From assembly GCA_027859205.1 (NCBI GenBank), contig JAQIBH010000040.1, positions 1,825 through 65,824 on the forward strand: a stretch of 64,000 nt of DNA, given 5' to 3'. The notes below the pieces were generated by a model. The model searched no databases, was not told the DNA's origin, and saw nothing but the letters and a program-made list of their open reading frames with translations. This stretch comes from Bacteroidales bacterium. Its GTDB lineage: Bacteria > Bacteroidota > Bacteroidia > Bacteroidales > UBA12077. A program made the translations under genes and the position numbers. Positions 760-53,076 of the stretch are shown one piece after another; within the stretch, counting starts at the first letter, position 1; every line of letters starts with the position of its first letter.

Positions 760-1075
760 TATACTCGTAGGGCAAAATCCCGATAGCTATTGGGATGGAG
801 ACATAGTATTAATTATAGCCTGTCTGCCGATAGGCAGATTGACAAATTCGGATTAGGCTTGGCGCAAATTGTTTTAACAGGGCAAACAGTTAGTAACTGT
901 TTGAGCCAGCTTGTGGGAAGACATCGATCACGAACATACTTCGACAAGCTCAGCATGACAGTCCGAGATCTTAAATTATATTAAATACTGCGTATTACGG
1001 AATTTGCTATATAGGTCCTATAATGTTTGCGTTATAGCCTGTCCCGCATTTTCTGCGGGATTAATATAGCTTTGG
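760..1075 (+). repeat. Non-coding scaffold copy R1 (matches the 3' part of the long repeat at 10294-10680 / 19556-19754)
   Basis: 861-973 matches 10369-10481 at 111 of 113 positions by direct comparison. Flanking stretches (TACCCGTAGGGC..., AAATACTGCGTAT..., TTTGTCCTATAAT...) are also shared with the 10.3-10.7 kb and 19.55-19.75 kb regions. Confidence 0.85.
880..920 (+). repeat. H1 hairpin element, copy 1
   Basis: GGGCAAACAGTT-AGT-AACTGTTTGAGCCAGCTTGTGGGAAG; the same architecture occurs in five other copies. Confidence 0.8.
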
Positions 1076-1120
1076 TTAATAACTTATGTGTATGCCTTGA
1101 GGTACGAATGGCATACTCTA

Positions 1121-2959
1121 TCAATGACTTAGATCAATTACGGAAACAATATTCGAAAAATCAGCATTACAATAAATCAAATACGATTTTTTAAGATTTG
1201 AAAGGATTTCTTTTAACTTTTCCTCAGATAACTCAATAAAAACTTTTTTCAAATCTGAATACAATTCATTAAACGTACAAATGTTATTTTCAAGAGCTTT
1301 TAGAACATATCCGTATTCAGGTTCACCAAACACGATATTTTCTATTTCAATATCATTGCAATATTCTGTATAATAATATATGCTATTGTTTTCCTGAATT
1401 TTATAAGAAAACGTATTGTTTTTATAATGATTTTCAATTTCAATTAGTTTATCCCATTCCTTAACGTTATCCGGTACATTCTTCTCATATCTGAATAAAT
1501 GAAAGCGATCTTCAGTATTTGAGAAATAATCCGGCAACAGGGAAGTGATAACATCATAATCATATTTTTTTCTGTCATCATCTGACATTGAGGAATAATA
1601 TTTTGTCATTGACGATAACACCAAATTCACATATATATGGGAAAATGAAACAATACTATTATTATAAAAGAATCTTAAAAAATGTAGATTATTTATGCAT
1701 TCTTGCACATCATTTTCAGTTTCTTCAGGCACATGTTTTATTACATTGGCGGTAGGAGTGATTCCATTTTTAATAGAATGTTTTACTATAAATAGATTAT
1801 CAGAAAAGCTATTACTTTTATTCATTTTCTTTAATAATGAATCAGAAAGCGCATCATAACCGATAAAGATATTTTTAAAGCCTGCAATGGCCATTTTTTT
1901 CATGATTTTTGCATTGAATAGATCATTTGGTATAATCTCGGCCCAGAATATATAATCTTCTTCATTTTTGAATTTTAAGTCAATTATTAAGTCAAGTAAT
2001 TTCTCGAAATGCTCGAAGCTACCGAAAGTATCGCTATCCACAAATGAAAATGTTGTAATCCCATAATACTTTGAGATATGATCTATCTCATTCACAATAC
2101 ATTCAGGACTCCTGACTCGCAATTTGTATCCTTGATTAAAATCACAAAATTTGCATTTTCTCCAATGACAAGAGCGAATTGTATTTATGGGAATACTTAT
2201 TTGATCACTCTTTTTAGGATAAGGGTAGTTATTTATATAATCATCATAGTCAGGGAAAATATAATTCTTAAAATCTAAATAATCACTTTTATTTGTTGAC
2301 GATTGCAAAATCTCTTCTGCATCACGATACATCAAGCGAGGAACTACTTTAAAATCAGAAGTGTCTTTCTTTATTTGATTAGATAATTCTAATAATGGGT
2401 ATTCGCCTTCGCCCCAGGTAACAAAATCAAAATAAGGACAAACTTTAATTGCCTCTTTTGCAGCTTTCTCACTACCAAAACCGCCAACAATAATTTTTAC
2501 TTCAGGTGCAATTTTCTTTATTTCTTCGGCTAAAATTATGCCCGGAATCCATTGATTATACTTAGCACTAATTCCAAAAAGCAAAATCTCAGTAAAATCA
2601 ATTTTTGTAATCTCACGATGAATTATTTCGAAAATTTCTTCTTTTTTAGTTTGTAAAAACTCCAAATAATACTTCGAGTTAATAGTTTTATAAGTAGAAT
2701 CTAATTTCTGAAGTAATGAAATGATTCGATTGTTGCCTTTTGCATTATTATCACGATCATTTAGGATTGAGAGAAAAGGAAGAATTCTAATTTCGGTATC
2801 TTCAGTTTTCACATAATCAGACATTAAGGATAATAAAAAATTCCAATATTTTATTTCTGTTTCAACACCATTGCTTACCATAAACTTTTTAAGGATGGAT
2901 AGTGAAATAGAAGGACTATATATATCAGCAGGAGGTAGGCAATTTAGAAGAATCTTCAT
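1121..2959 (-). CDS. B12-binding-domain radical SAM protein (class B rSAM-like), 612 aa
   Basis: The N-terminal ~200 aa have a Rossmann-like B12-binding-domain pattern (ILLFGISAKYNQWIPG...KIIVGGFG). The central cysteine cluster is IRSCHWRKCKFCDF, followed by TIM-barrel-like rSAM core strings (FSFVDSDTFG, IFIGYDALSD). There is a C-terminal ~90-aa extension. Confidence 0.8.
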   Translation of the reverse strand: MKILLNCLPPADIYSPSISLSILKKFMVSNGVETEIKYWNFLLSLMSDYVKTEDTEIRILPFLSILNDRDNNAKGNNRIISLLQKLDSTYKTINSKYYLEFLQTKKEEIFEIIHREITKIDFTEILLFGISAKYNQWIPGIILAEEIKKIAPEVKIIVGGFGSEKAAKEAIKVCPYFDFVTWGEGEYPLLELSNQIKKDTSDFKVVPRLMYRDAEEILQSSTNKSDYLDFKNYIFPDYDDYINNYPYPKKSDQISIPINTIRSCHWRKCKFCDFNQGYKLRVRSPECIVNEIDHISKYYGITTFSFVDSDTFGSFEHFEKLLDLIIDLKFKNEEDYIFWAEIIPNDLFNAKIMKKMAIAGFKNIFIGYDALSDSLLKKMNKSNSFSDNLFIVKHSIKNGITPTANVIKHVPEETENDVQECINNLHFLRFFYNNSIVSFSHIYVNLVLSSMTKYYSSMSDDDRKKYDYDVITSLLPDYFSNTEDRFHLFRYEKNVPDNVKEWDKLIEIENHYKNNTFSYKIQENNSIYYYTEYCNDIEIENIVFGEPEYGYVLKALENNICTFNELYSDLKKVFIELSEEKLKEILSNLKKSYLIYCNADFSNIVSVIDLSH

Positions 2960-3191
2960 CAGCTTTTCATATAAGGTATTTAGCTATTATTTACACAAAA
3001 ATAAGTTAAATATGAGCATAATATGGAAATATTCGGATGTTTTAATATTCTATTTAATACAATAGCTTTAAAGCAATCCTTATTTCGATATTGAATAATT
3101 AGTTCTAAAATAGGTAAACTAAATCAATTGAATATAAATTCATTGTTAAAAGTAACCCAAAATAAAACGCGTACAATATTTAAGTCGTTGA

Positions 3192-3316
3192 CAATCGCAT
3201 ACCTGTCTGCCGACAGGCAGGATTACCCGAATAAGACAACTCGAAGTGCATTCTATTTACCCGTAGGGCGAAATCCCGATAGCTATCGGGATGAAGTAAA
3301 ATGTGTGTGGAGTGAT
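3192..3316 (+). repeat. Non-coding scaffold copy R2 (short variant)
   Basis: AATCGCATA...ATTACCCGAATAAGACAACTCGAAG...TATTTACCCGTAGGGCGAA...GAAGTAAAATGTGTGTGGAGTGA aligns with 10235-10307 / 19497-19569 and with the scaffold end at 10762-10785. It carries two inserted palindromes (3202-3221, 3273-3292). Confidence 0.8.
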
Positions 3317-3608
3317 TATTAAAAATAATTTTAGTTCCAATAAATCATCTTTCTAATTTAAATGTCATTGTAATTTATTAAACAAATAAAGATCATTTTT
3401 TTACTAATCATCCTACGCGCTCATTATCAGCACTTTCTGTATTCTGTTAATATCTTTCTAAAAAAAGCCTAACAATTGGGGGTCACCTTTTTGTATATTA
3501 AGGAATTAATAGGTGAAGGCTTAAGAGTAAATATACAGTCACCAGAATTGTTAGAGGTAATTTGCTAATTAAAGAACATTTTTATTCGAAACTTAAACAT
3601 CGATAATA

Positions 3609-4607
3609 ATGAAACAAAAAGTAATTTTTACTGCCGATGATTATGGTCCTATACCATCTATAAATGATGGCATAATTGAGGCTGTTAAAACTGGATGCAT
3701 TAATTCCGTGGAAGCATTTGCAAACCACGATAATTTTAAAGAATCAATTAATCGTTTAATTAATGAATGCGATTCTGATAGCTTTGAGTTGGGATGCCAC
3801 CTAACTATTACTTCGGGTAAACCTATTACAGGTATGAAAAGTTTATTTGTACGTAACTTATCTTTTAATAAAAAAGGATATTTCCGAAAATACACTGATC
3901 TCAGAAGACCATTTAAACAAGCAAAACGAGATGATCAAGTAAAAATACTTAAAGAGGAGCTTAATGCTCAGATTTATCAATTCGAAAAACATGGTTTTAA
4001 AGATAAACTTACACACCTAAGTTGCCATCATAATGCATTATTCTTTTTCGAAGACTACCTAAATACATATTTTGAGCTAGCTAAAGAAAATAACCTCGCA
4101 GTTCGGACTCCTCACGGGATTCCATTTAAAAGACATAAAAGTTTTATACAAATTGTTGTTGCACTATCGGCAAAAAATCTAAGCCTTAAAGACAGGAACT
4201 ATATGATTCAATTTGCTAAAAAAATACCAGATTTATCTAACATGATTAAAAATCCACCTCCTCCGAATCGTCCTGTTTATCATATAAATGCTAATTATGG
4301 ACCTTTGGGTTTAAAAGTATTAGACGAAGAAGATATTGACGAATATGCAGAAGAAAAACATGCCTTACTTAAAAATTATTTAGAAAAATATGAGAATAAA
4401 GGTATCTCGGAATACGTATTTCATTTAATTACTGATGATTTTGCTAAACATCAGGAGTATAAAAATCAGGCTTTATTTAAAAATTGTAATTATACTGGAA
4501 TAGACAGCACTTATTTTGATAGTAGAATGGCTGAAATACGCTCTTTAATTAAATATAAAAATGTAATTGATAATATGACTGATAAAGTATCCTGGAAACA
4601 AGTATAA
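3609..4607 (+). CDS. YdjC/ChbG-family (carbohydrate deacetylase-like) protein, divergent, 332 aa
   Basis: The N-terminus VIFTADDYGPIPSINDGIIEAVKTGCINSVE fits the YdjC-family DD(F/Y)G opening. Later His-containing strings are LGCHLTITSGKPI and THLSCHHN. An 18-nt gap to the next ORF suggests an operon. Confidence 0.65.
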   Translation: MKQKVIFTADDYGPIPSINDGIIEAVKTGCINSVEAFANHDNFKESINRLINECDSDSFELGCHLTITSGKPITGMKSLFVRNLSFNKKGYFRKYTDLRRPFKQAKRDDQVKILKEELNAQIYQFEKHGFKDKLTHLSCHHNALFFFEDYLNTYFELAKENNLAVRTPHGIPFKRHKSFIQIVVALSAKNLSLKDRNYMIQFAKKIPDLSNMIKNPPPPNRPVYHINANYGPLGLKVLDEEDIDEYAEEKHALLKNYLEKYENKGISEYVFHLITDDFAKHQEYKNQALFKNCNYTGIDSTYFDSRMAEIRSLIKYKNVIDNMTDKVSWKQV

Positions 4608-4624
4608 AATTAAAACTTAATATT

Positions 4625-6193
4625 ATGCCACAATATTACGATGCACATTGTCATATCTTTAATAAGAATATTTTTCTGAGACAGGTGGTTGAAATTGCAG
4701 TAAGCTTGCACGAACTCACTAAATTAGCTGAAAAGAAAAAAAAGTTAAAACTTATTAAAAAAACAGTTAAAAATATTGATTTAGGACTAGATACATTTAT
4801 GAATAATAATATTAGTAATGTATTTGACGACTTAAATAATGCATATAATGGTAAGTTTATTATTACTCCTTTACCTATAGACTTGACCTATACCGATGAT
4901 AATGACGGAAGTACCAGAGAAGATTTAAGATATGTTAATCAACTCAAATGGTTTTTAATAAAGATTTTGGCTATTATTGGATTAATAAAAGGATTTACGA
5001 ATAAAGAAATTGATGAAATTCTAAATAAAATAAAGGTCAATATTAAGAAATTAATTAAATCGCTTAAAAATGATCTTGAGCATAATGAATGGCTTATTGA
5101 TAGTAATAATTACAATGATCAGATAAAAAATCATTTGCAGCTTGCAAAAGCAAATCCAAAAGTTAAACCTTTTCTATCTCTTGATCCTCGAAGACAACGC
5201 CGTGATAATAAGAACCTAATGGATCTGGTAGAAAAGTATTTCAAAGAAGATCCTGGATACTTTGTCGGTATTAAATTATATGCCCCTGTTGGATTTTCTC
5301 CAACAGATCCAATTTTAATGGGAGATGATGAGCATAATCAAAGTATTTATAAATATTGCCAAGAAAAGAAAATCCCAATTACAATACACAATTCAAATTC
5401 TGGGTTTTCGTGTTTTTCTAAAGAACTAAGAGTTACCGGATTAATTCGTAACGATAGAGGAAACTTAGTGGCATGCGATAATAAGAAGTATAAGTTTAAA
5501 AAGAAATTCTTTAAAGTTGTAGGTATTGGCGAGGCTATTGAAGAGCGTGCCAGAGTTTTAAATCATCCATCATTATGGGAAAAAGTATTGGAAAAATTTC
5601 CAAATTTAATACTGAATTTTGGCCACTTTGGAGGAAGTAGCCAAATTATGGAAAGGGTTAATTATAGTTTCCCTAATAATTTTAAAGATCTGGATACTTT
5701 TGATGTGACTAAAATGGCAAAAAAAGTAAAAGACAAAGCGAAAAGAGGAAAAGTCTGGGATCTTTTTATGGAAATAGATGGAGTTTATAATATTAAATCT
5801 AATCTTTCAAAAAAAGATCGAAAAGAAACTTGGGAAATATTATACAAAGCAGGAGTAATTGATAACTGGAGTCAGGCAATATTTGATATTATTATTAAAT
5901 ATCCTAATGCATACACCGATTTGTCTTGTTTTAGGGCATTTGATAAAAAAGGGGATACCTCATTTATTAATAATTTAACAAAATTTAAAAAGAACTTTTT
6001 TGATCCTTTAGATGCAAAACACAAAGAAAAGTTTTTATATGGTACCGATTTCTTTTTAATTCTGTTATCGGGTATTGAACCAAAAAATTATGTTAAAACC
6101 TTTGACAAAGTTTTTAATACAGATGAAAGCAAAGATTTTGATTTAATTGCAAGTAAGAATCCTGAAAAGTTTCTTGGAATCAGTAATAATTAG
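4625..6193 (+). CDS. Amidohydrolase-superfamily (TIM-barrel metal-dependent hydrolase, TatD/amidohydrolase_2-like) protein, 522 aa
   Basis: YYDAHCHIF (HxH on strand 1), ITIHNSN, NFGHFGG and LYGTDFF (strand-8 Asp) appear in the order expected for the amidohydrolase metal site. A long Lys-rich insertion follows the first motif. Confidence 0.55.
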   Translation: MPQYYDAHCHIFNKNIFLRQVVEIAVSLHELTKLAEKKKKLKLIKKTVKNIDLGLDTFMNNNISNVFDDLNNAYNGKFIITPLPIDLTYTDDNDGSTREDLRYVNQLKWFLIKILAIIGLIKGFTNKEIDEILNKIKVNIKKLIKSLKNDLEHNEWLIDSNNYNDQIKNHLQLAKANPKVKPFLSLDPRRQRRDNKNLMDLVEKYFKEDPGYFVGIKLYAPVGFSPTDPILMGDDEHNQSIYKYCQEKKIPITIHNSNSGFSCFSKELRVTGLIRNDRGNLVACDNKKYKFKKKFFKVVGIGEAIEERARVLNHPSLWEKVLEKFPNLILNFGHFGGSSQIMERVNYSFPNNFKDLDTFDVTKMAKKVKDKAKRGKVWDLFMEIDGVYNIKSNLSKKDRKETWEILYKAGVIDNWSQAIFDIIIKYPNAYTDLSCFRAFDKKGDTSFINNLTKFKKNFFDPLDAKHKEKFLYGTDFFLILLSGIEPKNYVKTFDKVFNTDESKDFDLIASKNPEKFLGISNN

Positions 6194-6248
6194 AACAAAA
6201 TTCCACTACGTTCAATAATCCAATTAATGCAATTCGAAGGCAAGCGGT

Positions 6249-6545
6249 ATGTATACACAATTTACTAGCATTTGTCCTATAACTTTAGCGCACTTAGCGA
6301 AGCGATTTCACGAACAAAGTGAGTAACAAAGCGTTCTCACGACCCAAGGGAGTAATGTCCTGCATGGAGCCTGTCCCGAACTCCTGCCTGCCGGCAGGCA
6401 AGGTGATTCGGGATTAACATAGCTTCGCTCAATAATTAATTGCTTTTTTTTAGGGTAAGAAAATAAAAATTCTACTTTCTCGCACTACCCAAACGAAATA
6501 CTTTTTTTACGTAATGAAATGGAGTGAAATGGGTGTGGAGTGATA
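6249..6545 (+). repeat. Non-coding scaffold copy R3
   Basis: TACACAATTTACTAGCATTTGTCCTATAA...TAACATAGCTTCGCTCAATAATTAATTGC...AGGGTAAGAAAATAAAAATTCTAC...GAAATGGGTGTGGAGTGA aligns with 10503-10785. A ~130-nt block of nested hairpin elements is inserted at 6281-6414. Confidence 0.85.
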
Positions 6546-6802
6546 ACTACGTTAGTGAAAATTATAAAGAAATCACTAACTTAAAGCAGTTTATAATAAA
6601 TTCACTAAAATGAAAGTACAAATAGGGAAGTATAGTTTATTGTAAAAACTAATAATAAGAAAGTTGCTTAATTTATTTGAATCAAAAATGTAGGAAATAC
6701 TAGCGATTATAACAATAAACTGTAAATATTAGTAAATTCATTTGTTTTTATTGATTATTAATTGCAATATTTGCATAAATTGTGTAAATAATTCAAATAA
6801 AA

Positions 6803-8059
6803 ATGTTAATAGAAATTTCAATAACTAATTATAGGTCGTTAAAAGAAAAATCAACATTAAGCTTAATAGCTGATGGGTACGATTCTAAATCAGAGAACAT
6901 AAATCTATTTGAATATGCCAATGATAAAAAGCTTAGACTTCATAATAGTGTTCTTATTTTTGGAGCAAATGGATCTGGTAAATCAAATATTGTTCGTGGA
7001 TTATGGACTCTAACGTGGTTATTAAATAACCCTAGACACGAAGGAGAACCTATAAATTTCTTTGATCCTTTTAAATTTAATGTAAATACAAAAAATCAAC
7101 CTAATAAATTTGAGATTAAATTCTTAGACTCAGATGCGATTCCATATTTGTATGTAGTTTCTTTTAATAGTGAGAAGATAACAGAAGAAAAGCTAACATA
7201 TTGGCCAAATAATAGAGAAACAGAAGTCTTTACTAGAGAAATCTTGGACGAAAATAGTAAGGTGCATGTAATTAAAATAGGAAAAGCTGCACAAGAAAAG
7301 AATAGTGAAGAAAACATCTACAAAAACAATTTCGCGATTTCGCACTTTTCTTCTCTAACTCCAAATGAAGTGATTCTAAATGCCTTCAATTCACTAAAGC
7401 GAATTCGCATTTGTAATAGCCTTAACATCGGTCATAGAATTAAAATATCTGATGATTTTGGTGAATTACTAATTAATAATGAATGGTTTAATAGAAGAGT
7501 CAATGCGCTTATCCGATATGCTGATTTAAATATAAATCTTGTGCGAGCTGAAAAGAAAGTTGACTCAGATGATCGAAAAGGAATTGACAAATTTAAGTTT
7601 TATACTCAACATTATTTATATAATGGAGATCAACGAACAGATATTTCTCTTGATATTCCTTTGAAAGAAGAGTCTGAAGGTTCACAAACAATTATAAGTC
7701 TTGGAAGTGAAATCATACACGCTTTGGATGAAGGAGGAGCGCTAATCGTTGACGAATTCGAAACTAGTCTTCATCCGAAACTTAGCAAAGCTTTGATACG
7801 TATTTTTCAAAGTAAAAAATTAAACCCCAAAAAGGCTCAATTAATTTTTACTACACACGATACTAATTTAATGGATCATCATATTTTTAGACGTGATCAA
7901 ATCTGGTTTACGGAAAAAAATAGTAGGGGTGAAACTGAATTATTTTCGATGATTGATTTTGATAATTTAAGAGAAGGTCATGTTTTCGAAAAATGGTATT
8001 TGTCAGGCAAATTTGGAGCATTACCACAATTAGAAACTATCGAAAAAGCGTTTGGATGA
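6803..8059 (+). CDS. AAA-family ATPase (AAA_21/ABC-like), AbiLi / OLD-ATPase-like
   Basis: Walker A FGANGSGKSN near the N-terminus; Walker B-like LIVDEFETSLHP followed by IFTTHD (ABC-type H-loop region). It is translationally coupled to an RloB-like gene. Confidence 0.8.
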   Translation: MLIEISITNYRSLKEKSTLSLIADGYDSKSENINLFEYANDKKLRLHNSVLIFGANGSGKSNIVRGLWTLTWLLNNPRHEGEPINFFDPFKFNVNTKNQPNKFEIKFLDSDAIPYLYVVSFNSEKITEEKLTYWPNNRETEVFTREILDENSKVHVIKIGKAAQEKNSEENIYKNNFAISHFSSLTPNEVILNAFNSLKRIRICNSLNIGHRIKISDDFGELLINNEWFNRRVNALIRYADLNINLVRAEKKVDSDDRKGIDKFKFYTQHYLYNGDQRTDISLDIPLKEESEGSQTIISLGSEIIHALDEGGALIVDEFETSLHPKLSKALIRIFQSKKLNPKKAQLIFTTHDTNLMDHHIFRRDQIWFTEKNSRGETELFSMIDFDNLREGHVFEKWYLSGKFGALPQLETIEKAFG

Positions 8060-9177
8060 GCAGAATCACAGGATCAAAAAAGACAGCTCATACTGTATTA
8101 ATTGTCTGTGAAGGAAAAAATACTGAACCTTCATATTTTGAGTCCTTAGAATCCTATATTCGTGATAAATATTCTGATCATTATCCAAACGGAATAACTT
8201 TTGATATTTTCCCAATCGGTCCCGAAACTCAGGAAGCTATAAAGCAAGAGAGTGAACTGTTTTCAAGAAAAAAAACTACTAGAGTAGTTAAAAATGCTGA
8301 ACAAATAATTAATGAAGACATAGAAGAAGAATATAGCCCAGCGCCAATACGATGGGTTCGATATGCTCAGAAACAATCTATAAATGTTGGGTATAACCAA
8401 GTTTGGAGTGTTTTTGACTATGACAATCGAAGTGCCTCACACATAGAAAAGTCTTTTAATCAAGCCGAAACGGCAACGACTGACGGTATTGATAAAGTAC
8501 AAATAGCTTATAGCTCATATTCATTTGAATATTGGATACTATTACATTATGAACTTTATGAGAAGTATTTGGGTTTTTCTGAATGTAAGGATGAAAAAAG
8601 AGAACCTATTGCATGCGGAACTAAAGCTCATTCTGATGATTGCAATGGAAATAAATGTTTAACTGGTTATTTATATCTTAATGATCCTAAGGTTGGGTCT
8701 ATTTTAAAAACTGAGGAATCAACTTTTCCATACATAAAAGAAAATATGAGGAAAGCATGTATTAGGGCTAAGTATATGAGAACATTGCATTCAAAAGAGA
8801 CTACTAACAAATGGGAGATGAAACCTGTAACTACTATGGATGAAATGTTAGAATCATTGATCCCAGGATTAAATAATATTACATGGCATTTAGCAACAAA
8901 CGAAATTGTTTTTACTAATTGGAAAATTAGTTGGTCTCGTAATGAAAGCTTACTAACAATAAAACTTATAACTAATGGGAGAGAAACAGTTTTAATCAAT
9001 GCCTATAATATCTGTCTTTACGATGAAAAATTAGATCACGATGGAGTTAATCAAAGAATATTGAAACAAGGACAAGGAGAGTATGACATTGTTGAAATAG
9101 ATATTAGCAAATTAGACATTATACCTTGTTATATTTCTATAAAAAAAGGTGTAGATACACATTTTTCAAAATTGTAA
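8056..9177 (+). CDS. RloB-like (Toprim-like) protein, AbiLii-like
   Basis: The likely start is the ATG at 8056, overlapping the upstream stop (ATGA). VLIVCEGKNTEPSYFESL is the characteristic RloB N-terminal motif. Later WSVFDYD... and a Cys-rich stretch. The track ORF 7993.. begins upstream inside the ATPase gene. Confidence 0.75.
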   Translation: MSRITGSKKTAHTVLIVCEGKNTEPSYFESLESYIRDKYSDHYPNGITFDIFPIGPETQEAIKQESELFSRKKTTRVVKNAEQIINEDIEEEYSPAPIRWVRYAQKQSINVGYNQVWSVFDYDNRSASHIEKSFNQAETATTDGIDKVQIAYSSYSFEYWILLHYELYEKYLGFSECKDEKREPIACGTKAHSDDCNGNKCLTGYLYLNDPKVGSILKTEESTFPYIKENMRKACIRAKYMRTLHSKETTNKWEMKPVTTMDEMLESLIPGLNNITWHLATNEIVFTNWKISWSRNESLLTIKLITNGRETVLINAYNICLYDEKLDHDGVNQRILKQGQGEYDIVEIDISKLDIIPCYISIKKGVDTHFSKL

Positions 9178-9272
9178 AAGCTGCTGATTAAGTTCTAATA
9201 AGACTATATACATTATGTTAAATAGAAAGTCAACTCAAGGCTTTTCTGGCATCTTAATAATTTTGTCTTAAA

Positions 9273-9314
9273 GGGCGAACATCCAGTGGATGTTTGAGCC
9301 AGGTTGTGGGGAGG
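9273..9314 (+). repeat. H1 hairpin element, copy 2
   Basis: GGGCGAACATCC-AGT-GGATGTTTGAGCCAGGTTGTGGGGAGG. Confidence 0.8.
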
Positions 9315-9444
9315 CGAGTAGTTTACGAGCGATAGGTCTGGTAAGCTTTACACGAGTTTTAGGCTTCTAAATTAACCATAAAACACTATATTTTAACTAA
9401 AACGGCTTGTAATGTGTGGAGTAAGCTATTCCGTAGTTTTAGAA

Positions 9445-9486
9445 GGGCAGTTGTCTAGTAGACAACTGAGCCAGGATGTGCGGAAG
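9445..9486 (+). repeat. H1 hairpin element, copy 3
   Basis: GGGCAGTTGTCT-AGT-AGACAACTGAGCCAGGATGTGCGGAAG. Confidence 0.75.
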
Positions 9487-9829
9487 CCTTGATCAGTTAC
9501 TCGCCAAAAATGGCTCGTGAGATCGTTCTCCCGATATTCATCGGGATCACTAAGTTGGTTCTTTTTGTATTAACTAAGCGAAGCGATCTCACGAACACAA
9601 AGTGTGAGTAACCAAAAAGAATGAAAGAACGGCGGTAGGAAAACATGTGTTAAGAAACCATTTGAATTATATAGATCCCGAATGACTTCGTATCGAGATT
9701 AATTATTCCCGTTGGTCATGAGAACGCTACGCTAAGTACAACCAAATTCGTTAGTCACTAAAACTTCCAAACAAATGGTTTCATTAACTTATGTTGTGCG
9801 TTAGCAAAGAATTTTTATTGCGGGTTGGA

Positions 9830-9871
9830 GGGCAAATATCCAGTGGATATTTGAGCCAGCTTGTGGGAAGG
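9830..9871 (+). repeat. H1 hairpin element, copy 4
   Basis: GGGCAAATATCC-AGT-GGATATTTGAGCCAGCTTGTGGGAAGG. Confidence 0.8.
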
Positions 9872-10007
9872 AAATAAATTATTGGAATGCGTTAGCCAGC
9901 GTTGGGCAACGACGAAGTCCTCACGAACACAATTTTTTATAATTAATCCGTGAGTAATTGTTTTTGAAAATTTATTTAGTAATATTTCACTCAAAAGAAA
10001 TTGTAAA

Positions 10008-10050
10008 GGGCAAACATTCAGTGAATGTTTGAGCCAGCATGTGCGAAAGA
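10008..10050 (+). repeat. H1 hairpin element, copy 5
   Basis: GGGCAAACATTC-AGT-GAATGTTTGAGCCAGCATGTGCGAAAG. Confidence 0.8.
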
Positions 10051-10083
10051 AAGGCTGGCAAAGCGGCTATTTAAAATAATGAC

Positions 10084-10175
10084 TAACTGCGAAGCTCTCA
10101 CGAACACATATAAAATTTACAATAGTGAGTAACTGCGAAGCTCTCACGAACACACATAAAATATACAATAGTGAG
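10084..10175 (+). repeat. Tandem duplication (2 x 46 nt) of an H4-type element
   Basis: TAACTGCGAAGCTCTCACGAACACATATAAAATTTACAATAGTGAG is followed immediately by TAACTGCGAAGCTCTCACGAACACACATAAAATATACAATAGTGAG. The 19.4-kb copy reads ...AATGACTA|ATTATAGG... with neither unit. Confidence 0.85.
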
Positions 10176-10387
10176 TAATTATAGGACTAAGCTTAGGAAG
10201 TTTAATTATCGTACGAATAAGTCCCTTAGAATCGCATATTAGAACCATTTCTGTACAATTACCCGAATAAAGTAAACTCGAAGCGAACTATTTACCCGTA
10301 GGGCGAATCCCGATAGCTATCGGAAGGAGACATAGTATAAATTATAGGTACAAATTCGGATCAGGGTTGGCGCAAATTGTTTTAACA

Positions 10388-10430
10388 GGGCAAACAGTTA
10401 GTAACTGTTTGAGCCAGCTTGTGGGAAGGC
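10388..10430 (+). repeat. H1 hairpin element, copy 6
   Basis: Identical to copy 1 except for one base in the 3' tail (GGGAAGGC vs GGGAAGAC). Confidence 0.8.
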
Positions 10431-10965
10431 ATCGATCACGAACATACTTCGACAAGCTCAGTATGACAGTCCGAGATCTTATTTTATATAAAATACTGCG
10501 TATACACAATGCAAAAGTTATCGTTGTGATAGTCCGCAAATTCCTTAACATAATTTCAATACCGATATCGGACAAAAGTCAACGATATCTGAAATTATGT
10601 TAAATACTGCGTATTACAGAATTTGCTAGCATTTGTCCTATAATGTTTGCGTTATGTTAACATAGCTTCGCTCAATAATTAATTACTTTTTTTAGGGTAA
10701 GAAAATAGAAATTCTACTTCCTCGCACTATCCAAGCGAAACACTTTTTTTACGCAATGAAATGAAGTGAAATGGGTGTGGAGTGAATTCTTAGCTAAAAC
10801 ACATTTTGTTTACTTTTAGATTTGCATTTTGAAACATATTTATTACTTTTAATTAATGTTTTTATAAACAGGGAGATATAATGTATGGAACAATGTTCCA
10901 CCTATCCACTAGTTAGGTTTCATGCAAAAAAAACTCCCGAATCATATTTATTCATTTTGTATTTT

Positions 10966-13598: not shown

Positions 13599-14337
13599 AC
13601 GTTATTTAATTGGTGTCATCAAAAAAGACTTAAACACTCGACTAAAAGCACCTAGGTGTACTAATTTTTAGCACTCTGATGGCTGGACTGGTCACTGATA
13701 ACTCAACTATAAGTATGAAGTCTGCTAATGTGATGATAGATTGCTTTGAAAGCTCATCAACAAAATTGATAGTGAATGATTGATATCATAAGATATGTAA
13801 TCCGTATGCGAAGGTACTCTAAATATCGATAATTACCAATACTTGCTATTCTTCTTATTTTGTGTGACTTAACGAATAGTACAAACAGATAGCAAAAGCC
13901 TACATTTAATGGCATACAGATTAATAATTCGAAAAGCAAAGCACGAAAACCTAACAATGCATCATAAAACATAAGGGTTCTCATGCGTTTTTAAAGGTTT
14001 ATGCAAGAAATTAACTCCGCCAAATCTGTGATTTGACGGGTAAATATAAAATGCTAAATTTGTGTCTAATCGCATATTTGGCTCAGGGTAATTTTGACAA
14101 GTAAACTTTTCAAAATCCCTTACAGTTTCATATGCTCACCGTTAGGTGCAGGCTAGGAGAGATGAAACGTAGTGCTTAATTAATGGTATTTTTGATTTGC
14201 CGACCCGCAAAGAAAAGAAATGCCAACACACAGGCTGAAATTTCAGCTTGTAAAAGAGCCAAGTTTCCGCCATCTCATATCAAAATACAGAAGCTAAAAT
14301 TGTATATTGCGGAGTTGAAAAATGAGAATTATATTAA

Positions 14338-17300
14338 ATGATAGATAAAAATAATTTCAAAGACCTTCTAGTAAATCTTGGATTTTCAATTAAGGGAGAC
14401 ACATATACTAAGAAATTTAAAGAAACGGATGCTTATCTAAAAGTTGACTTCAAAGCTGAAAAGCTCATTTATCCAGAAGACAAAGGTTTTACAATAAACG
14501 AAAAGCAAACATGCAATTTTAAACAAAAGGAAAATTTTGTTGTCTTTGAATGTGTCCACAGACTTTTTGAAAAACAATATAAACCTGAACATATTGAACT
14601 TGAACCAAAATGGAAAGTTGGGCATGGTGCCAGTGGAGGACGTGCGGATATCATGGTAAAAGACAATTCAGGTAAATCACTACTTATTATTGAGTGTAAA
14701 ACAGAAGGGAAGGAATTTAATGATGCATGGAAGAAAACACTAATAAATGGAGGGCAATTGCTTTCTTATGCAAAGCAAGCAGGAAGCACACAATTTGTTT
14801 GCTTGTATGCTTCTGATTATTTGGACAACAAAGTTCTAGCTGATTATCGTCTTATTACACTAAAAGACAATGAAAAACTACTAACAGAGCTAGTAGACAA
14901 AAACCTCTTTCGTTTGATAAAGCAAAAGGCTTAGATGTTGAAGATATTTTCAAAGCGTGGAAAAAAACCTACAGTCAAGATTACGCTACTAAAGGGGTTT
15001 TCGAGAAAGATATTCCAGCTTATGAAATTGGGAAAACGAAATATACTCTAAAGGATTTAAACACAATCAGCAGCAACCATATTCAGGGGAAATACCATGA
15101 ATTTGCCACCATATTAAGACAACACAATGTTTCTGGTCGAGAAAATGCTTTTGATAAACTAGTCAACTTATTTCTATGTAAAATAGTAGACGAAACCAAT
15201 AACCCTGAAGAACTTAAATTCTATTGGAAAGGAATCGCCTATGATGATCAATTCAGTTTAATTGACAGACTTCAAAAACTGTATCAAGATGGTATGCAGC
15301 GTTTTCTGGGAGAAGATGTGGTATATATCAGTGCAGACCAAATAGATAAAGCCTTTGATTTTTTCAAGAACGATCCAGATGCCACAAAAGATACCATTAA
15401 AAAGTATTTCAAAGAATTAAAATTTTTCAACAACAATGATTTTGGATTTATTGATGTCCATAATGAAAAACTGTTCTATCAAAACACAGCTATACTTCTA
15501 AAAATAGTACAAATGCTTCAAGACATTAAATTAAAGTCTGAAGCTGATTCAATAGAAGAGCACCAGTTTTTAGGGGATATGTTCGAAGGTTTCTTAGATC
15601 AAGGAGTGAAACAATCTGAAGGACAGTTTTTCACACCTATGCCAATTGTAAAATTCATTTTAAAATCATTGCCTCTAGATTCCATAATTACTAAAGGTGA
15701 TGAAATCCCTAAGGTGATTGATTTTGCTTGTGGTGCAGGGCATTTCTTAAATGAATATGCTAAAGAAATTAAACCTATAGTTGAAAAAGAGAAGGAAGCG
15801 AAAATTACCGACTTCTATGAAAATATTTTTGGAGTTGAAAAGGAATACCGTTTGTCTAAAGTGGCTAAAGTATCCTCTTTTATGTACGGTCAGGACGATA
15901 TAAACATTGTTTATTCAGATGCCTTGTCTTCTGGTAAAGCTATGGACGACAAAAATATCAAAGACAATAGCTTTTCTGTTTTAGTTGCAAATCCCCCGTA
16001 CAGTGTTAAGGGGTTTTTAGAAACGCTAACTGATATAGAAAGAAAAAAATATGAACTCATTGATACGGTTGAAGAAAAGAGTTATCCAAACAATAATAGT
16101 ATTGAAACCTTCTTTATTGAACGTGCAAAGCAATTACTAAAATCTGGAGGAGTTGCTGCTATTATAGTTCCTACATCAATTCTGACCAAAGGAAAGGCAA
16201 AAAGCACCTCTACGTCCACTAATATTTATGTGGCGACTCGTGAAATCTTGTTAAAATATTTTGACATTGTAGCAATTGCAGAATTTGGTAGTGGGACATT
16301 TGGCAAAACAGGAACAAATACCGTAACACTTTTCATTAGGCGTAAAAAAGAAAACCCTGCTCCAGCAGACCATTTCAAGAATCGGATAAATGCTTGGTTC
16401 AAATATGATAGATCGAAAGACGAATTATTTGAAGATGAGCATTTAATAAAGCAATATTGTAATCATTTGGAATTAGAGTTTAAAGACTATCAAACACTTT
16501 TAGAAGGAAAGCCGAATAAAGCACTATTAGATACAGATGTTTTTAAGGATTATCAAAAAGAATTTGATAAATGGTCGGAAATTAAAAACCTTAAAAAGAA
16601 AACAACCTTTAAGGCTTTAGGTGCAGACAAAAAGGAAGCTGAAATTAAGAAACGCTTTATTGCTTATCTCACTGAAAATGAAAAAGAGAAACTCTATTAT
16701 TTTGTAATAGCTAGTCAGAACCCTCAAAAAGTATTGATTGTTAGGAGTCCATCTAAAACTACTCAAATGAAAGAATTTCTGGGTTACGAGTGGAGTGCTG
16801 CTAAAGGAAATGAGGGGATTAAATATTTGGGTGGTGTTAAACTTGACAAATTAGAGGGCGAGGATGAAGACGAAGGAAATGTGGCATTAGAAGAAGAAGA
16901 TAAGCGTGTGTTGAGTAATATTTTCAATTTGGACAATATCAATACACCTCTTTACGACCCTCATTACAAAAACAATACTGATAAAATCAACCATCTGATT
17001 AATCAGAACTTTAAAGGAAAAAACATTGATATTCCAGAAGAATTAAAAGAACATGTTACACTCTCTAGGCTATCTGATATGTTGGACTTTACTAAAGTTG
17101 ATTTCAACAAATATCTCTCCCTTACTCCAAAATCAACTTTAGCTTTTGAAACTAAATGGGACACTAAAAAACTATCAGATATTGCTCTTGTAAATCCATC
17201 TAAAACAGAAATGAAGAAACTAAATGAAAGTACCAAAGTGTCTTTTGTAGAGATGGCTTCTGTTAGTGATGAGGGATATATCGCAGAAAAAGAAGATAAA

Positions 17301-18323
17301 AAATATCAAGAAATAAAGAAAGGTAGCTACACCTATTTTGCTGAAAACGATATCATTCTTGCCAAGATAACACCTTGCATGGAAAACGGAAAGTGTGCAA
17401 TTGCAACAGATTTAACAAATAAAATTGGTTTTGGTAGTTCAGAGTTTCATGTAATTAGGGTTGGTTCTGAAATATTGAATAGATATTTGTTTGAATTGCT
17501 TAACCAAGAAGAAGTTAGGTTGGTTGCAGAAAAGAATATGACTGGGTCAAGTGGGCATAGACGAGTTCCCAAAGAATTTTATGAGTCTCTAAAAATTCCA
17601 TTTCTACCAATTGAAATTCAGACCGAATTAGTTAATGAATGTAATACGATTAATAAAGAAGCTGAAAAGGCTAAGAAAGTTTTAAATGTTTCAGAAGAAG
17701 AAATAGAAGCTTTATTCCAAAGAGCATTTTCTAAGGCTGATAAAACCTTTAGAATAAATAACACAGATGTGTTCGAGCTATCGATTGGAAAAAGGGTTCT
17801 AAAAAATGAAATCAATCAGGAAGGAATTGGAATTCCTGTTTTTAGTGCTAATGTCTTTGAACCTTTTGGCCACATCAACAAAGAGCTAATTAAAGATTTC
17901 AATCGACCATCCGTACTCTGGGGAATTGATGGAGATTGGATGGTAAATTGCTTGCCTAAAAACATTCCGTTTTATCCAACAGACCATTGTGGAGTTCTCA
18001 GAATTAAAGGAGACACTATTCATCCCAAATATGTAGCTTGGGTATTAGAAAAAGAAGGAGAACGTGTTAGGTTTTCTAGAACAAATCGTGCTTCTATGGA
18101 TAGCATGAGAGGAATAAATGTAAAAGCTCCTTCGCAGGACATACAGATCAAACTCATTAAAGAGGTTGAGAAAAGGGAAAAGAAAATCAACGCATCACAG
18201 GAAATCATTAATGGAATAGCCAAACGAAAAGAAGAAGTGATTAAGTCCTATTTAATGGATAAAGCTTCATCGCCAAAAATAGTTAGGGCAGCAGAACCAA
18301 AAGTAGATTACAAAAAGAAATAA
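14338..18323 (+). pseudogene. Fused R-M-S restriction-modification enzyme (Type IIB/IIG-like: PD-(D/E)xK nuclease + gamma-class N6-adenine methyltransferase + two target-recognition domains), interrupted by a frameshift near 14899-14934
   Basis: ORF 14338..14934 carries GGRADIMVKDNSGKSLLIIECK (D...ExK). Frame 3 is open from 14874 and encodes clearly coding sequence (DVEDIFKAWKKTY...KYHEFATILRQHNVSGRENAFDKLVNLFLCKIVDE) upstream of the first ATG at 15294. Methyltransferase motifs are VIDFACGAGHFL and VLVANPPYSVKGF. Two HsdS-like TRDs lie in the C-terminal ~400 aa. Confidence 0.75.
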
Positions 18324-18795: not shown

Positions 18796-18824
18796 AAATA
18801 CTTGCTTAAATCAAGGTCAAAATA

Positions 18825-19754
18825 ACATTATGTTAAATAGAAAGCTAACTCAAGGCTTTTTCTGGCATCTTAATAATTTTGTCTTAAAACAAGGAGTGGC
18901 TTACGAGTGATTGGTCTGGTAAGCATTGCACGAGTTTTAGGATTCATAATTAACCATAAAACGCTATATTTCAGCTAAAACGGCTTGTAATGTGTGGAGT
19001 AAGCTATTCTGTAGTTTTAGAGAAATTAGTGAGCAGCCTTGATTTTTTTGGTTCTTTTTGTATTAAGACAAAAAGAATAATAGAACGGTGGTCGGAAAAC
19101 ATGTGTTAAGAAACCATTTGAATTATATAGATCCCGAATAACATCGTATTGGGATTAATCCATGCAAATTCGTTTGTGACTAAAAATTCCAAACAAATGG
19201 TTTCATTAACTTATGTTGAGCGTATGCAAAGAATTTTTATTGCGCGTTGGAAAAAAAAGAAATAAATTATTGAACGCGTTTGTAAAGCGTCGGGCAACGA
19301 CGAAGTCCTCATGAACACCATTTTTTATAATTAATCCGTGAGTAATTGTTTTTGAAAATTTGTTTTGTATAATATTCTTCAAAAGAAATTGTAAAACAAT
19401 TTTGGGCTTAGCCGAAGCGGCTATTTAAAATAATGACTAATTATAGGACTAAGCTTAGGAAGTTAATTAATAGTACAAATAAGTCCCTTAGAATCGCATA
19501 TTAGAACCATTTCTGTATAATTACCCGAATAAAGTAAACTCGAAGCACACTATTTACCCGTAGGGCGAAGTGTAAACGGAGACATAGTATTAATTATAGT
19601 TGACAAATAAGGATCAGGGTTGGCGCAAATTGTGTTAACATAAAATAAAACGATCACGAACAGATAAACTGTCCGAGATCTTATTTTATATTAAATACTG
19701 CGTATATACAATTTGCTGGGATTTGTCCTATAATTTATATTATGTTAAATAGGA
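18825..19754 (+). repeat. Non-coding scaffold copy R6 (~0.93 kb, 'empty' version lacking most hairpin inserts)
   Basis: Collinear with 9210-10660. It starts ACATTATGTTAAATAGAAAG and ends ATTATGTTAAATAGGA, so it is bounded by a TTATGTTAAATAG direct repeat. Confidence 0.9.
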
Positions 19755-19806: not shown

Positions 19807-20976
19807 TTATTCCATTTTTTTACTTATCTCTTCATACTTTTCGGTCATTCCTAAACGATAATATAAAGTTTTTAGTGTTGACATTATACCAATATCTTCT
19901 GGTGTTAATTTATACGCGTATTCAATATATGGTAAAGCTTCCAAAAATTTAGCATCAGCTTTTTCTTTAGCAACCTGATATTCTGTATTATCAGAAATTG
20001 CATTAGCTTCATCACTTAGCTCAACGGCTTCGTTAAAATAAATAACACCTAAGTTATATTGTGCATCAAATAACTCAGGATCTATTTCAATAGCTTGCTT
20101 ATATTTTTCTTTTGCTTTATCCAACTCCCCTATTTTATTATATAGATGTGCTTCAGCCGAGAAATATTGTGGATTATCTGGGTCTTTTTCTTTTGCTAAA
20201 TTAATATATTCAAAAGCACCTTCAGTGTTTTCATCTTCTAAAAGGTAATAATTAATTATTCCACCAATTACATCAAAATTACCAGGATATTTTTCAAAAC
20301 CAGCTTTTAATAGTTTTAAATAGTTTTCCTTGTCTCCTTTAGCTTTATAACATCCGGCATATAATAAATATGTATCACCTGCGCCATACTCGTATTCAAT
20401 TAATTTTTCATAATATTTTAGTGCTTCATCATATTTCTCAACTCTTTGTGCTGCAATTGCTGTGTTAAAGAGAATTGCGGTATCAATTTCACCACCAAAA
20501 ACTGACATTTCTTTAAGCTCAACGCTTTTAGCAAAATACAAAAATGAATTTTCGTAATCGTTTTCATTATACGTATCAATCGCTTTTTGAATGAAGTTAT
20601 TTGCTAGTGTTATTAATTTAATATCTATGGCATTTTTATATGCTCCACCACCATCCATATTATAAGCTTTTTTATAATTATCAAAAGCTTTTATCAATGG
20701 ATTTTCGCAAATATTTTGAAATTCGGGATTTTCACTACTTGAAATTGCGTTATAAACTAATGCTTTTACATAATATGTTTTAGCCCAATCCTTAGTTTTT
20801 TCCTGTGTTTCGGCAAATTCAGTAGCTTTTAAAGCAGTATCAAGTTTTTCTCCGCTTTCTGCCCAAATTTGAGCTTTTCTTACATGTTTCTTTTGCGCCT
20901 GTACATGGTTGTTTAACATCAGTGTTAACACAAAAACAACAGATATAGTTGTTACTATAAATCTTTTCATTTTCAT
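19807..20976 (-). CDS. Secreted tetratricopeptide-repeat (TPR) protein
   Basis: N-terminal signal peptide (MKMKRFIVTTISVVFVLTLMLNNHVQA) and repeated A/Y/L-patterned 34-aa units (YFSAEAHLYNKIGELDKAKEKYKQAIEIDP...). Confidence 0.8.
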   Translation of the reverse strand: MKMKRFIVTTISVVFVLTLMLNNHVQAQKKHVRKAQIWAESGEKLDTALKATEFAETQEKTKDWAKTYYVKALVYNAISSSENPEFQNICENPLIKAFDNYKKAYNMDGGGAYKNAIDIKLITLANNFIQKAIDTYNENDYENSFLYFAKSVELKEMSVFGGEIDTAILFNTAIAAQRVEKYDEALKYYEKLIEYEYGAGDTYLLYAGCYKAKGDKENYLKLLKAGFEKYPGNFDVIGGIINYYLLEDENTEGAFEYINLAKEKDPDNPQYFSAEAHLYNKIGELDKAKEKYKQAIEIDPELFDAQYNLGVIYFNEAVELSDEANAISDNTEYQVAKEKADAKFLEALPYIEYAYKLTPEDIGIMSTLKTLYYRLGMTEKYEEISKKME

Positions 20977-21063
20977 AATAAATTGCTATTTAGGTTTTTA
21001 ATTAATTTTTTTCAAAAATAAACTATATTTAATTTAAGTCAAATTTTAAGCCAAATATTTAAC

Positions 21064-52554: not shown

Positions 52555-52560
52555 AAAAAA

Positions 52561-52899
52561 GCAGTAGGCCTATAAGCCGGGTTCTGTTCCACAACGAATT
52601 ATGGTTCTCATCATTTATCTAAGCAACCTACCCCCCGACATTGAACGAGTAGCTCTTAATTGTCGGTATACATGGTCTTGCAACCCAAAAGACAGACAGC
52701 ATTCGATATTGCTACCGAAACTGGTGAGCTCTTACCTCACCTTCTCACCCTTACTTTAACGAATTAAAGCGGTAATTTTCTTCTCTGTTACTATACTCTC
52801 ACGAACATCTCTCATTTCGAGAGTTTGGTACTCTTTGTTGTCCGGACTTTCCTCTTCACCTGATAGATATCGGGAGAAGCGATGAAACAGCCTACTACA
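52561..52899 (-). ncRNA. rnpB: RNase P RNA, bacterial type A
   Basis: The minus strand reads GTAGTAGGCTG...GAGGAAAGTCCGGACA...GTAAGGGTGAGAAGGTGAGGTAAGAGCTCACC...GGGTAGGTTGCTTAGA...ACAGAACCCGGCTTATAGGCCTACTGC. The universal GAGGAAAGUCCGG and ACAGAACCCGGCUUA blocks are present, and the 5' and 3' ends pair as P1. Confidence 0.92.
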
Positions 52900-53076
52900 A
52901 TGCAAATTTATATCTTAATTTTCAACTTACAATAATGAACTTCAAACAATGTGGCTTTCTTTATGCTTCGACATCCCGATAATTATCGGGACAGCATGAC
53001 AAGATTTTAAAATAATTAATACGAAATATAAGATATTAACTTTTTAGTATTTGTACTCTGTACTCAATACTTTGTA

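Follow-up and report, generated by a model that had tools for sequence, protein, structure and literature searches.

The 64-kb stretch of DNA analysed here (the window) is part of a low-GC (~31%) Bacteroidota chromosome and contains, near its start, several copies of a short hairpin element that we call H1. All lie in a variable region bounded on one side by an M3 peptidase gene whose end is at 626 and on the other by a TPR gene and gyrA (19807-23607). The region includes radical SAM, YdjC-like and amidohydrolase genes, three sugar- or lipid-related genes, an AbiLi (AAA_21)/AbiLii (RloB-like) abortive-infection pair at 6803-9177 and a type IIG restriction-methyltransferase gene. H1 is found here in a non-coding scaffold of about 1 kb (1.45 kb in copy A with its inserts), which is present three times at around 90% identity:

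760..1010, + strand: scaffold C, a partial third copy comprising the 3' part of the scaffold, downstream of the M3 peptidase gene and containing the H1 at 880
9200..10650, + strand: scaffold A, a non-coding mosaic directly downstream of the AbiL genes, holding five H1 copies and, besides them, small insert modules of other kinds
18812..19750, + strand: scaffold B, a paralogous non-coding copy, ~90% identical to A and adjoining the TPR gene and gyrA, with all five H1 sites empty

The window was searched with the pattern GGGC-N8-AGT-N8-GAGCCAG(-NN-TGTG), the chance level being taken from dinucleotide shuffles. Six matches were obtained where the shuffles lead one to expect 0.05, all on the + strand, and their positions and sequences are those listed in an initial annotation of the DNA. 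Covariance model (CM) scores refer to the model described below.

880..920, + strand: H1, site 5 type, in partial scaffold C; stem AAACAGTT/AACTGTTT, loop AGT, tail GAGCCAG-CT-TGTGGGAAG; CM 63.7 bits
9273..9314, + strand: H1, site 1 of scaffold A; stem GAACATCC/GGATGTTT, the first pair being G.T; CM 60.9 bits
9445..9485, + strand: H1, site 2 of scaffold A; stem AGTTGTCT/AGACAACT; CM 55.4 bits; site and stem also in L059
9830..9871, + strand: H1, site 3 of scaffold A; stem AAATATCC/GGATATTT; CM 68.8 bits; site and stem also in L059
10008..10048, + strand: H1, site 4 of scaffold A; stem AAACATTC/GAATGTTT; CM 65.9 bits; filled in scaffold A only
10388..10429, + strand: H1, site 5 of scaffold A; stem as at 880; CM 64.9 bits

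The tail motif GAGCCAGNNTGTG, searched alone, finds the same six sites and nothing else in the window, and the covariance model, run without filters over the 64 kb, adds no further H1. The copies are thus clustered, with six inside 10 kb and none in the remaining 54 kb. Those at 880 and 10388, already regarded as the same in the initial annotation, share their stem and represent one site within a duplicated stretch of 154 nt (95% identity), so that the window holds five distinct stems. All of these are paired over 8 bp plus C3:G23 (numbering below), and the predicted folding energies of the copies as single-stranded DNA (ssDNA) range from -6.8 to -9.5 kcal/mol (z = -2.6 to -4.1). Spacing between neighbouring copies in scaffold A is irregular, at 172, 385, 178 and 380 nt.

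A weak H1-like match (10.6 bits, E = 2.1) was seen on the - strand at 14220-14275, where the hairpin GCTGAAATTTCAGC is followed by CTGTGTGTTGG with no GAGCCAG box. It may be a degenerate relative of H1 or a chance occurrence.

Hairpin structure, covariation and distribution

Copies in other genomes were sought by scanning one genome per GTDB species with the pattern, its 16 stem positions left free, and about 103 blocks of 8 kb around the matches were taken as loci (numbered with an L), with one H1 match per block. The scan yielded 107 loci. Of these, 103 are from Bacteroidota, in ~47 assemblies that are all metagenome-assembled genomes (MAGs), several of them from freshwater and activated-sludge series, and have 6-8 of the 8 stem positions paired; the labels of the positive assemblies are Bacteroidota, Bacteroidia, Sphingobacteriaceae, Flavobacteriales, Cyclobacteriaceae and Cytophagales. 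The four loci from other phyla have 1-6 of 8 positions paired, as expected for chance matches. Searches of IMG/VR, the INPHARED phages and the PLSDB plasmids found no H1.

The unit is 41-46 nt long. Counting the first G of GGGC as position 0, its predicted fold starts with a basal clamp of G0:C27 and G1:C26, followed by a 1x2 internal loop in which G2 lies opposite A24 and G25. Above this come C3:G23, a covarying stem of 8 bp and an apical loop, Y-AGT-R, with three loop bases. The 3' tail, AG-NN-TGTG-BG-NNRG, is conserved and single-stranded. A second helix formed by the tail was considered and dropped, the partners varying with context (AGCCA/TGGCT, TGTGCG/CGCACA, AGCTTGT/ACAAGCT).

Covariation was assessed in 91 unique 48-nt cores from other genomes. 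As many as 97.1% of stem cells are in standard pairs, compared with 27-51% in controls with slid partners and 27-69% when shuffled and slid controls are taken together, and double-sided changes occur at all eight stem pairs (199 cells). The initial annotation had proposed, from the six copies of the window, that selection acts on structure, be it of RNA or of ssDNA, rather than on stem sequence, and the wider set bears this out. Several conserved positions are not imposed by the pattern, namely A at -1 (85/92), A at 4 (87/92), T at 22 (89/92) and G at 37 (74/92). Purines predominate at positions 40-41, and the pair that closes the loop is Y:R without exception.

The covariance model, a check that the initial annotation had recommended, recovered around 20 additional, divergent members, with loops including TGT, AGC, GGT, ACT and TGA, among others. 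In the pooled alignment of 113 distinct sequences the AGT loop is present in 94, pairing stands at 97.8% and there are 60 different 5' arms. Every copy with C at position 0 (CGGC...; five copies in four MAGs) has G at position 27 (GAGCGAG), and no variant changes one side without the other, a joint switch that reveals G0:C27 as a further base pair. At three loci a second, divergent and inverted H1 lies 10-80 nt away, in a doublet resembling the REPINs formed by repetitive extragenic palindromes (REPs): L093 5064-5234, L056 1701-1802 and L100 7064-7216. The inverted partner in L093 belongs to the CGGC/GAGCGAG subtype.

Such a pattern might be trivial, the product of a single hairpin recently duplicated a few times or of palindromes arising by chance, and the copies at 880 and 10388 truly are one duplicated site. 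Yet 60 distinct stem arms and ~47 MAGs do not fit a few duplicates, and pairing in the shuffled and slid-partner controls falls far below that observed. The copies from the genome collection and the pairing controls together refute this explanation, to which we attach a negligible probability.

Since the stem sequence is free while its pairing and length, the loop, the internal loop and the tail are all fixed, the functional form of H1 would be a folded single strand, recognized as such.

Filled and empty sites

Homologues of the scaffold were found in two MAG contigs (L059 and L102) and three metagenome contigs (L108-L110), and were compared with the window copies in a multiple alignment. GyrA identity to the window is 91% for L110 and 82% for L059, and 71% for the further locus L015. 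The initial annotation had remarked that the scaffold copy at 18.8-19.75 kb lacks H1 and has short fillers instead, and this holds at all five corresponding positions of scaffold B:

18889..18893, + strand: empty site 1, ACAAG; identical in L059, L108, L109 and L110
19023..19036, + strand: empty site 2, AAATTAGTGAGCAG; TTAGTGAGCAG is resident sequence, present also 3' of the L102 H1
19251..19258, + strand: empty site 3, an A-run; identical in L108, L109 and L110
19396..19403, + strand: empty site 4, ACAATTTT; filler (ACAATTTTGGGC) identical in L059, L108 and L110
19641..19650, + strand: empty site 5, TAAAATAAAA

Occupancy of the five sites differs between scaffolds:

Scaffold B, L108 and L110: no H1 site filled
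L109: site 2 only
L059: sites 2 and 3, plus an H1 with the stem and right flank of site 5 that lies ~75 nt upstream of site 5, itself empty
L102: sites 1 and 2, the contig ending after site 2
Scaffold A: all five sites

Occupancy is thus nested, and every copy has the same orientation. At sites 1, 3 and 4 the short, unrelated fillers are identical in separate scaffold lineages (the group of B, L108 and L110 on the one hand, L059 or L109 on the other). Deletions that occurred independently would not produce such identity, which shows that the empty state is ancestral and that the H1 copies are insertions. The alignment indicates that the scaffolds gained H1 stepwise and in a single orientation. 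The converse, that the fillers in scaffold B are remnants of H1 deletions, was considered and dropped because other scaffold lineages have the identical fillers. Site 2 of L109 holds the stem that scaffold A has at site 1 (GAACATCC), which suggests copying between nearby sites.

A search based on flanking sequences added six pairs of filled and empty sites from other genomes (filled versus empty: L013 vs L013/L055; L050 vs L101; L051 vs L051; L058 vs L072; L078 vs L027; L096 vs L095), bringing the total to 11 pairs in 7 genomes. In all of them an H1 of 41-46 nt stands opposite a filler of 2-12 nt, with neither target duplication nor terminal inverted repeats (TIRs). The additional fillers are AAAACT, TAAGTC, AA, TAAACC, GCGACCTTA and GAAAATATTTGT. 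Most fillers are rich in A, and their place is often a linker or loop between other hairpins; the left flank of H1 is conserved only at -1, as A.

Scaffold A has further inserts that are missing from B, at 9494-9554, 9573-9612, 9704-9738, 10084-10175 and 10445-10467. Among them are a family of the form CGAAG..CTCACGAACAC-(N)-GTGAGTAA, seen once as a tandem of 2 x 46 nt, and a module of 61 nt containing a TCCCGATATTCATCGGGA hairpin. These small inserts vary in presence among the scaffold homologues, as H1 does. Intergenic repeats of 86-97% identity also tie the spacer at 6.2-6.8 kb to the 3' flank of scaffold A (6445-6543/10687-10785, 6254-6290/10615-10651 and 6414-6450/10657-10693).

On a larger scale, the scaffold copies border two variable gene blocks of ~8-9 kb each, the spacing from copy to copy being ~9.3-9.6 kb both times. 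The direct repeat ATTATGTTAAATAG brackets scaffold B (18826 and 19738) and the same word opens scaffold A (9214). The arrangement looks like a tandem accretion of islands that share a common end sequence. In the second block the type IIG gene is split into two open reading frames (ORFs), 14338-14934 and 15294-18323, which correspond to positions 1-190 and 314-1270 of the profile. The intervening stretch is still coding-like in another frame, so that the split can be put down to a frameshift or sequencing error near 14,930.

Genomic context and interpretation

Nearly all H1 copies are intergenic. The upstream gene is on the same strand as H1 in 54 cases and on the opposite strand in 38, while for the downstream gene the figures are 29 and 55; orientation with respect to the flanking genes shows no preference. 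Only 9 of 76 copies lie between divergent genes, a rarity which means that H1 is mostly found at gene 3' ends. No Bacteroidota -7 promoter motif (TAnnTTTG) occurs at a fixed distance from H1, and a terminator scan found no T-run terminator at any copy.

In most cases H1 forms part of a larger repeat that is specific to its genome, and the only sequence common to these carriers is the H1 core. In the JAAFIL01 MAG (L009, L027, L034, L070 and L064) the carrier is a MITE (miniature inverted-repeat transposable element) of ~290 bp with 30-bp TIRs (ATACCAAGTGAACTTATATTTTAGTC...), H1 being internal cargo; in JAQSCW01 it is a 280-bp repeat. Elsewhere the carriers are composite, H1 being combined with a CCCTCTCC hairpin and GGGGTGAGGTC in some and with CTTGAT modules plus poly-T/poly-A hairpins in others.

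A second palindrome, CCCGATAGCTATCGGG, also recurs across genomes (14 matches in 817 kb). It is present in the window at 779-794, 3275-3290, 10309-10324 and 52975-52990, as well as in L003, L007, L033, L038, L044, L052, L059, L068 and L074. At 779, 3275 and 10309 it is preceded by GTAGGGCGAA, which supplies the GTAG tag of canonical REPs. This palindrome may be the real REP of these bacteria, of the type associated with REP-associated tyrosine transposases (RAYTs).

The reading we favour, with about an even chance of being correct, is that H1 is a non-autonomous hairpin mini-element of uncultured Bacteroidota, REP-like, acting at the DNA level and mobilised in trans. The grounds are the absence of promoter and terminator, the unbiased gene orientation, the unrelated carriers and the insertion behaviour. 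As the filled and empty sites show, H1 enters non-coding DNA rich in hairpins as a discrete unit and in one orientation, at linkers or loops that are short and for the most part A-rich, and replaces 2-12 nt of the target without duplication. Afterwards it also spreads passively inside larger repeats. The invariant parts would most likely form the contact surface for a trans-acting protein, with the fixed stem length setting the distance from loop to base. H1 would act as ssDNA, and an enzyme of the HUH single-strand type is the leading candidate.

Several observations weigh against this picture. Among the 1038 ORFs from the H1 loci, clustered all against all, there is no recurrent neighbouring gene: the sole large cluster consists of surface proteins whose tandem repeats are long, and is probably a common family merged by single-linkage clustering, and one integrase-like family is present in 3 loci. 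No ORF of these loci or of the window has the HUH plus Y motifs of a Y1 transposase or the YxDD motif of a reverse transcriptase. The initial annotation had suggested a RAYT or Y1 partner; none is encoded near any copy. Loss of target bases on insertion matches no characterised HUH transposition mechanism, and copy number is low, at no more than ~10 strict H1 per MAG. The orientation statistics are confounded, many copies riding on carrier repeats, and GC skew, used as a proxy for the replication strand, shows no bias (37/86 loci positive, p = 0.24). Finally, species with GyrA proteins 71-82% identical have retained H1 at homologous sites, which could point to a host function rather than selfish spread.

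The main rival reading, although a less probable one, is that H1 is a structured RNA module, a protein-binding or processing hairpin acting in transcripts and borne, as an optional and exchangeable helix, by several non-coding RNAs and by transcripts derived from repeats. The strong covariation would suit it, as would conservation that is asymmetric between strands (3' tail, A at -1) and the frequent position of H1 between or inside other hairpins, enclosed by a stem such as CCCCTGAAGC...GCTTCAGGGG in MAG009. G.T mismatches outnumber those of A.C by 16 to 7 (p = 0.09), which is weak as an indicator of the folding strand and, like the persistence of H1 at homologous sites of diverged genomes, fits a DNA element too. 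On the other hand, a search of Rfam 15 placed no family over H1, either at gathering thresholds or at E-values up to 5-10, in agreement with the view of the initial annotation that the element lies outside known families; its only match in the window is a bacterial class A RNase P RNA (52557-52898, - strand, 199 bits). Conserved promoters and terminators are lacking, orientation relative to neighbouring genes is unbiased, the tail has context-dependent partners or none, and an identical core occurs amid otherwise unrelated flanks.

A role as a DNA site used by the host, at which a chromosomal protein would bind a cruciform or hairpin and which would act in supercoiling, gene insulation or 3'-end stabilization, appears quite unlikely. 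There is a precedent in the bacterial interspersed mosaic elements (BIMEs) of E. coli, which are bound by gyrase, IHF and Pol I. The position of H1 between genes, mostly at 3' ends and depleted between divergent genes, would agree with such a role, as would its mosaics with other conserved palindromes such as CCCGATAGCTATCGGG and its persistence across species. However, sites are filled or empty without apparent consequence, even between paralogous scaffolds of one genome, and copies are few and clustered, six lying in 10 kb of the window with none in the other 54 kb.

The data leave room for a more tentative proposal, in our view rather unlikely, that Bacteroidota have a hitherto unrecognized mechanism of single-strand insertion, of which H1 is the cis hairpin. 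The enzyme concerned would not be of the Y1/HUH type, nor would it be encoded beside its substrates, and it would place ~42 nt in fixed orientation in A-rich single-stranded linkers of non-coding DNA rich in hairpins, with removal of a few target bases, possibly by way of an RNA intermediate. Spread through such an intermediate outright, by SINE-like (short interspersed element-like) or reverse-splicing-like retro-insertion of a small H1 transcript into A-rich single-stranded targets, seems highly improbable. It would account for the A-rich sites, the single orientation relative to the A-run and the small target deletions without duplication, and the 3' end of H1 is suitably purine-rich, but neither a reverse transcriptase-like ORF near any copy or in the window nor a promoter was found, and we know of no described bacterial element of this kind.

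Whatever its mode of spread, H1 is a phylum-level, structure-constrained module that is missing from current RNA and repeat databases and whose carriers are represented by MAGs alone. With its base, loop and tail invariant, H1 provides a precise ligand, as ssDNA or RNA, with which a binding or mobilising protein could be fished out. The covariance model allows H1 to be annotated, and the presence or absence of copies offers strain-level markers in variable regions with defence genes.

Comparison with known systems

The closest resemblance is to the REP/BIME elements and their RAYT (TnpA_REP) transposases. Like these, H1 is a short extragenic imperfect palindrome with conserved foot bases and a stem in which only pairing matters; it likewise lies at gene 3' ends, occurs in mosaics with other small motifs and is polymorphic in presence. 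With a 9 + 2 bp hairpin in a 41-46-nt unit, it also conforms to the short (20-40 nt) extragenic palindrome by which REPs are recognized. The REP tag GT[AG]G or CGTC is, however, not present: H1 has instead the foot A-GGGC, conserved in 85-92 of 92, plus a long conserved 3' tail. Nor is there a flanking single-copy RAYT gene, as in a REPtron, in the ~103 blocks of 8 kb or in the window, although a RAYT may be encoded farther away in these genomes. REPs number tens to hundreds of copies with inverted doublets, whereas H1 reaches ~10 strict copies per MAG at most and only ~3 in 100 copies have an inverted partner, the others being mostly single or in direct-orientation clusters. A literature search for a Bacteroidetes repeat like H1 found only the REPs of RAYT subclass 2.6, in which a GCT[AG]G tag precedes CGCGAG-type stems, quite different sequences from H1 (PMC6006769, supplementary table).

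The ends of IS200/IS605 elements and their ORF-less derivatives, the palindrome-associated transposable elements (PATEs), share with H1 strand- and orientation-specific insertion, the lack of target duplication and a subterminal hairpin that is recognized, or in H1 would be, as ssDNA. They differ in having left and right hairpins and in inserting 3' of a fixed target of 4-5 nt, against a single hairpin and only A at -1 in H1. H1 insertion also loses a few target bases, and no tnpA or tnpB lies nearby.

Integron attC sites similarly rely on a folded single-strand structure more than on sequence, with asymmetric unpaired bases and arrays in one orientation. They are, however, 57-141 nt long compared with ~42 nt for H1, whose consensus lacks the RYYYAAC/GTTRRRY boxes and which has no adjacent intI or integrase gene. 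Furthermore, the DNA between H1 copies is retained where H1 is absent, so the intervening segments are not integron cassettes. Repeats of CRISPR (clustered regularly interspaced short palindromic repeats) arrays and Cas6-type handles resemble H1 in having a covarying stem, a hairpin with fixed flanks and a fixed loop, but form regular arrays, whereas H1 copies are irregularly spaced in the window (172-385 nt) and single elsewhere. The nearest Rfam CRISPR match, at 9192-9229, lies outside H1 and is not significant (E = 0.93).

MITEs of the TIR type are small, non-coding and dispersed, as is H1, which differs in lacking TIRs and target site duplications and is only cargo in the one TIR-type MITE described above. 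Intrinsic terminators require a GC-rich hairpin and a T-run, where H1 has the tail GAGCCAG..TGTG. A likeness between GAGCCAG and the opening bases of domain V in group II introns was considered and dropped, since the required complementary strand is missing.

The insertion signature of H1 differs from those of the characterised bacterial mini-elements, consisting as it does of a discrete unit, one orientation, A-rich targets and a small target loss without duplication, and it could thus bring to light a further way in which the non-coding DNA of bacteria is colonised by hairpins, one not described before. H1 falls outside the definitions of REP/RAYT, PATE, attC, CRISPR and TIR-type MITE systems and of all Rfam families, yet it behaves like the small palindromic interspersed elements.

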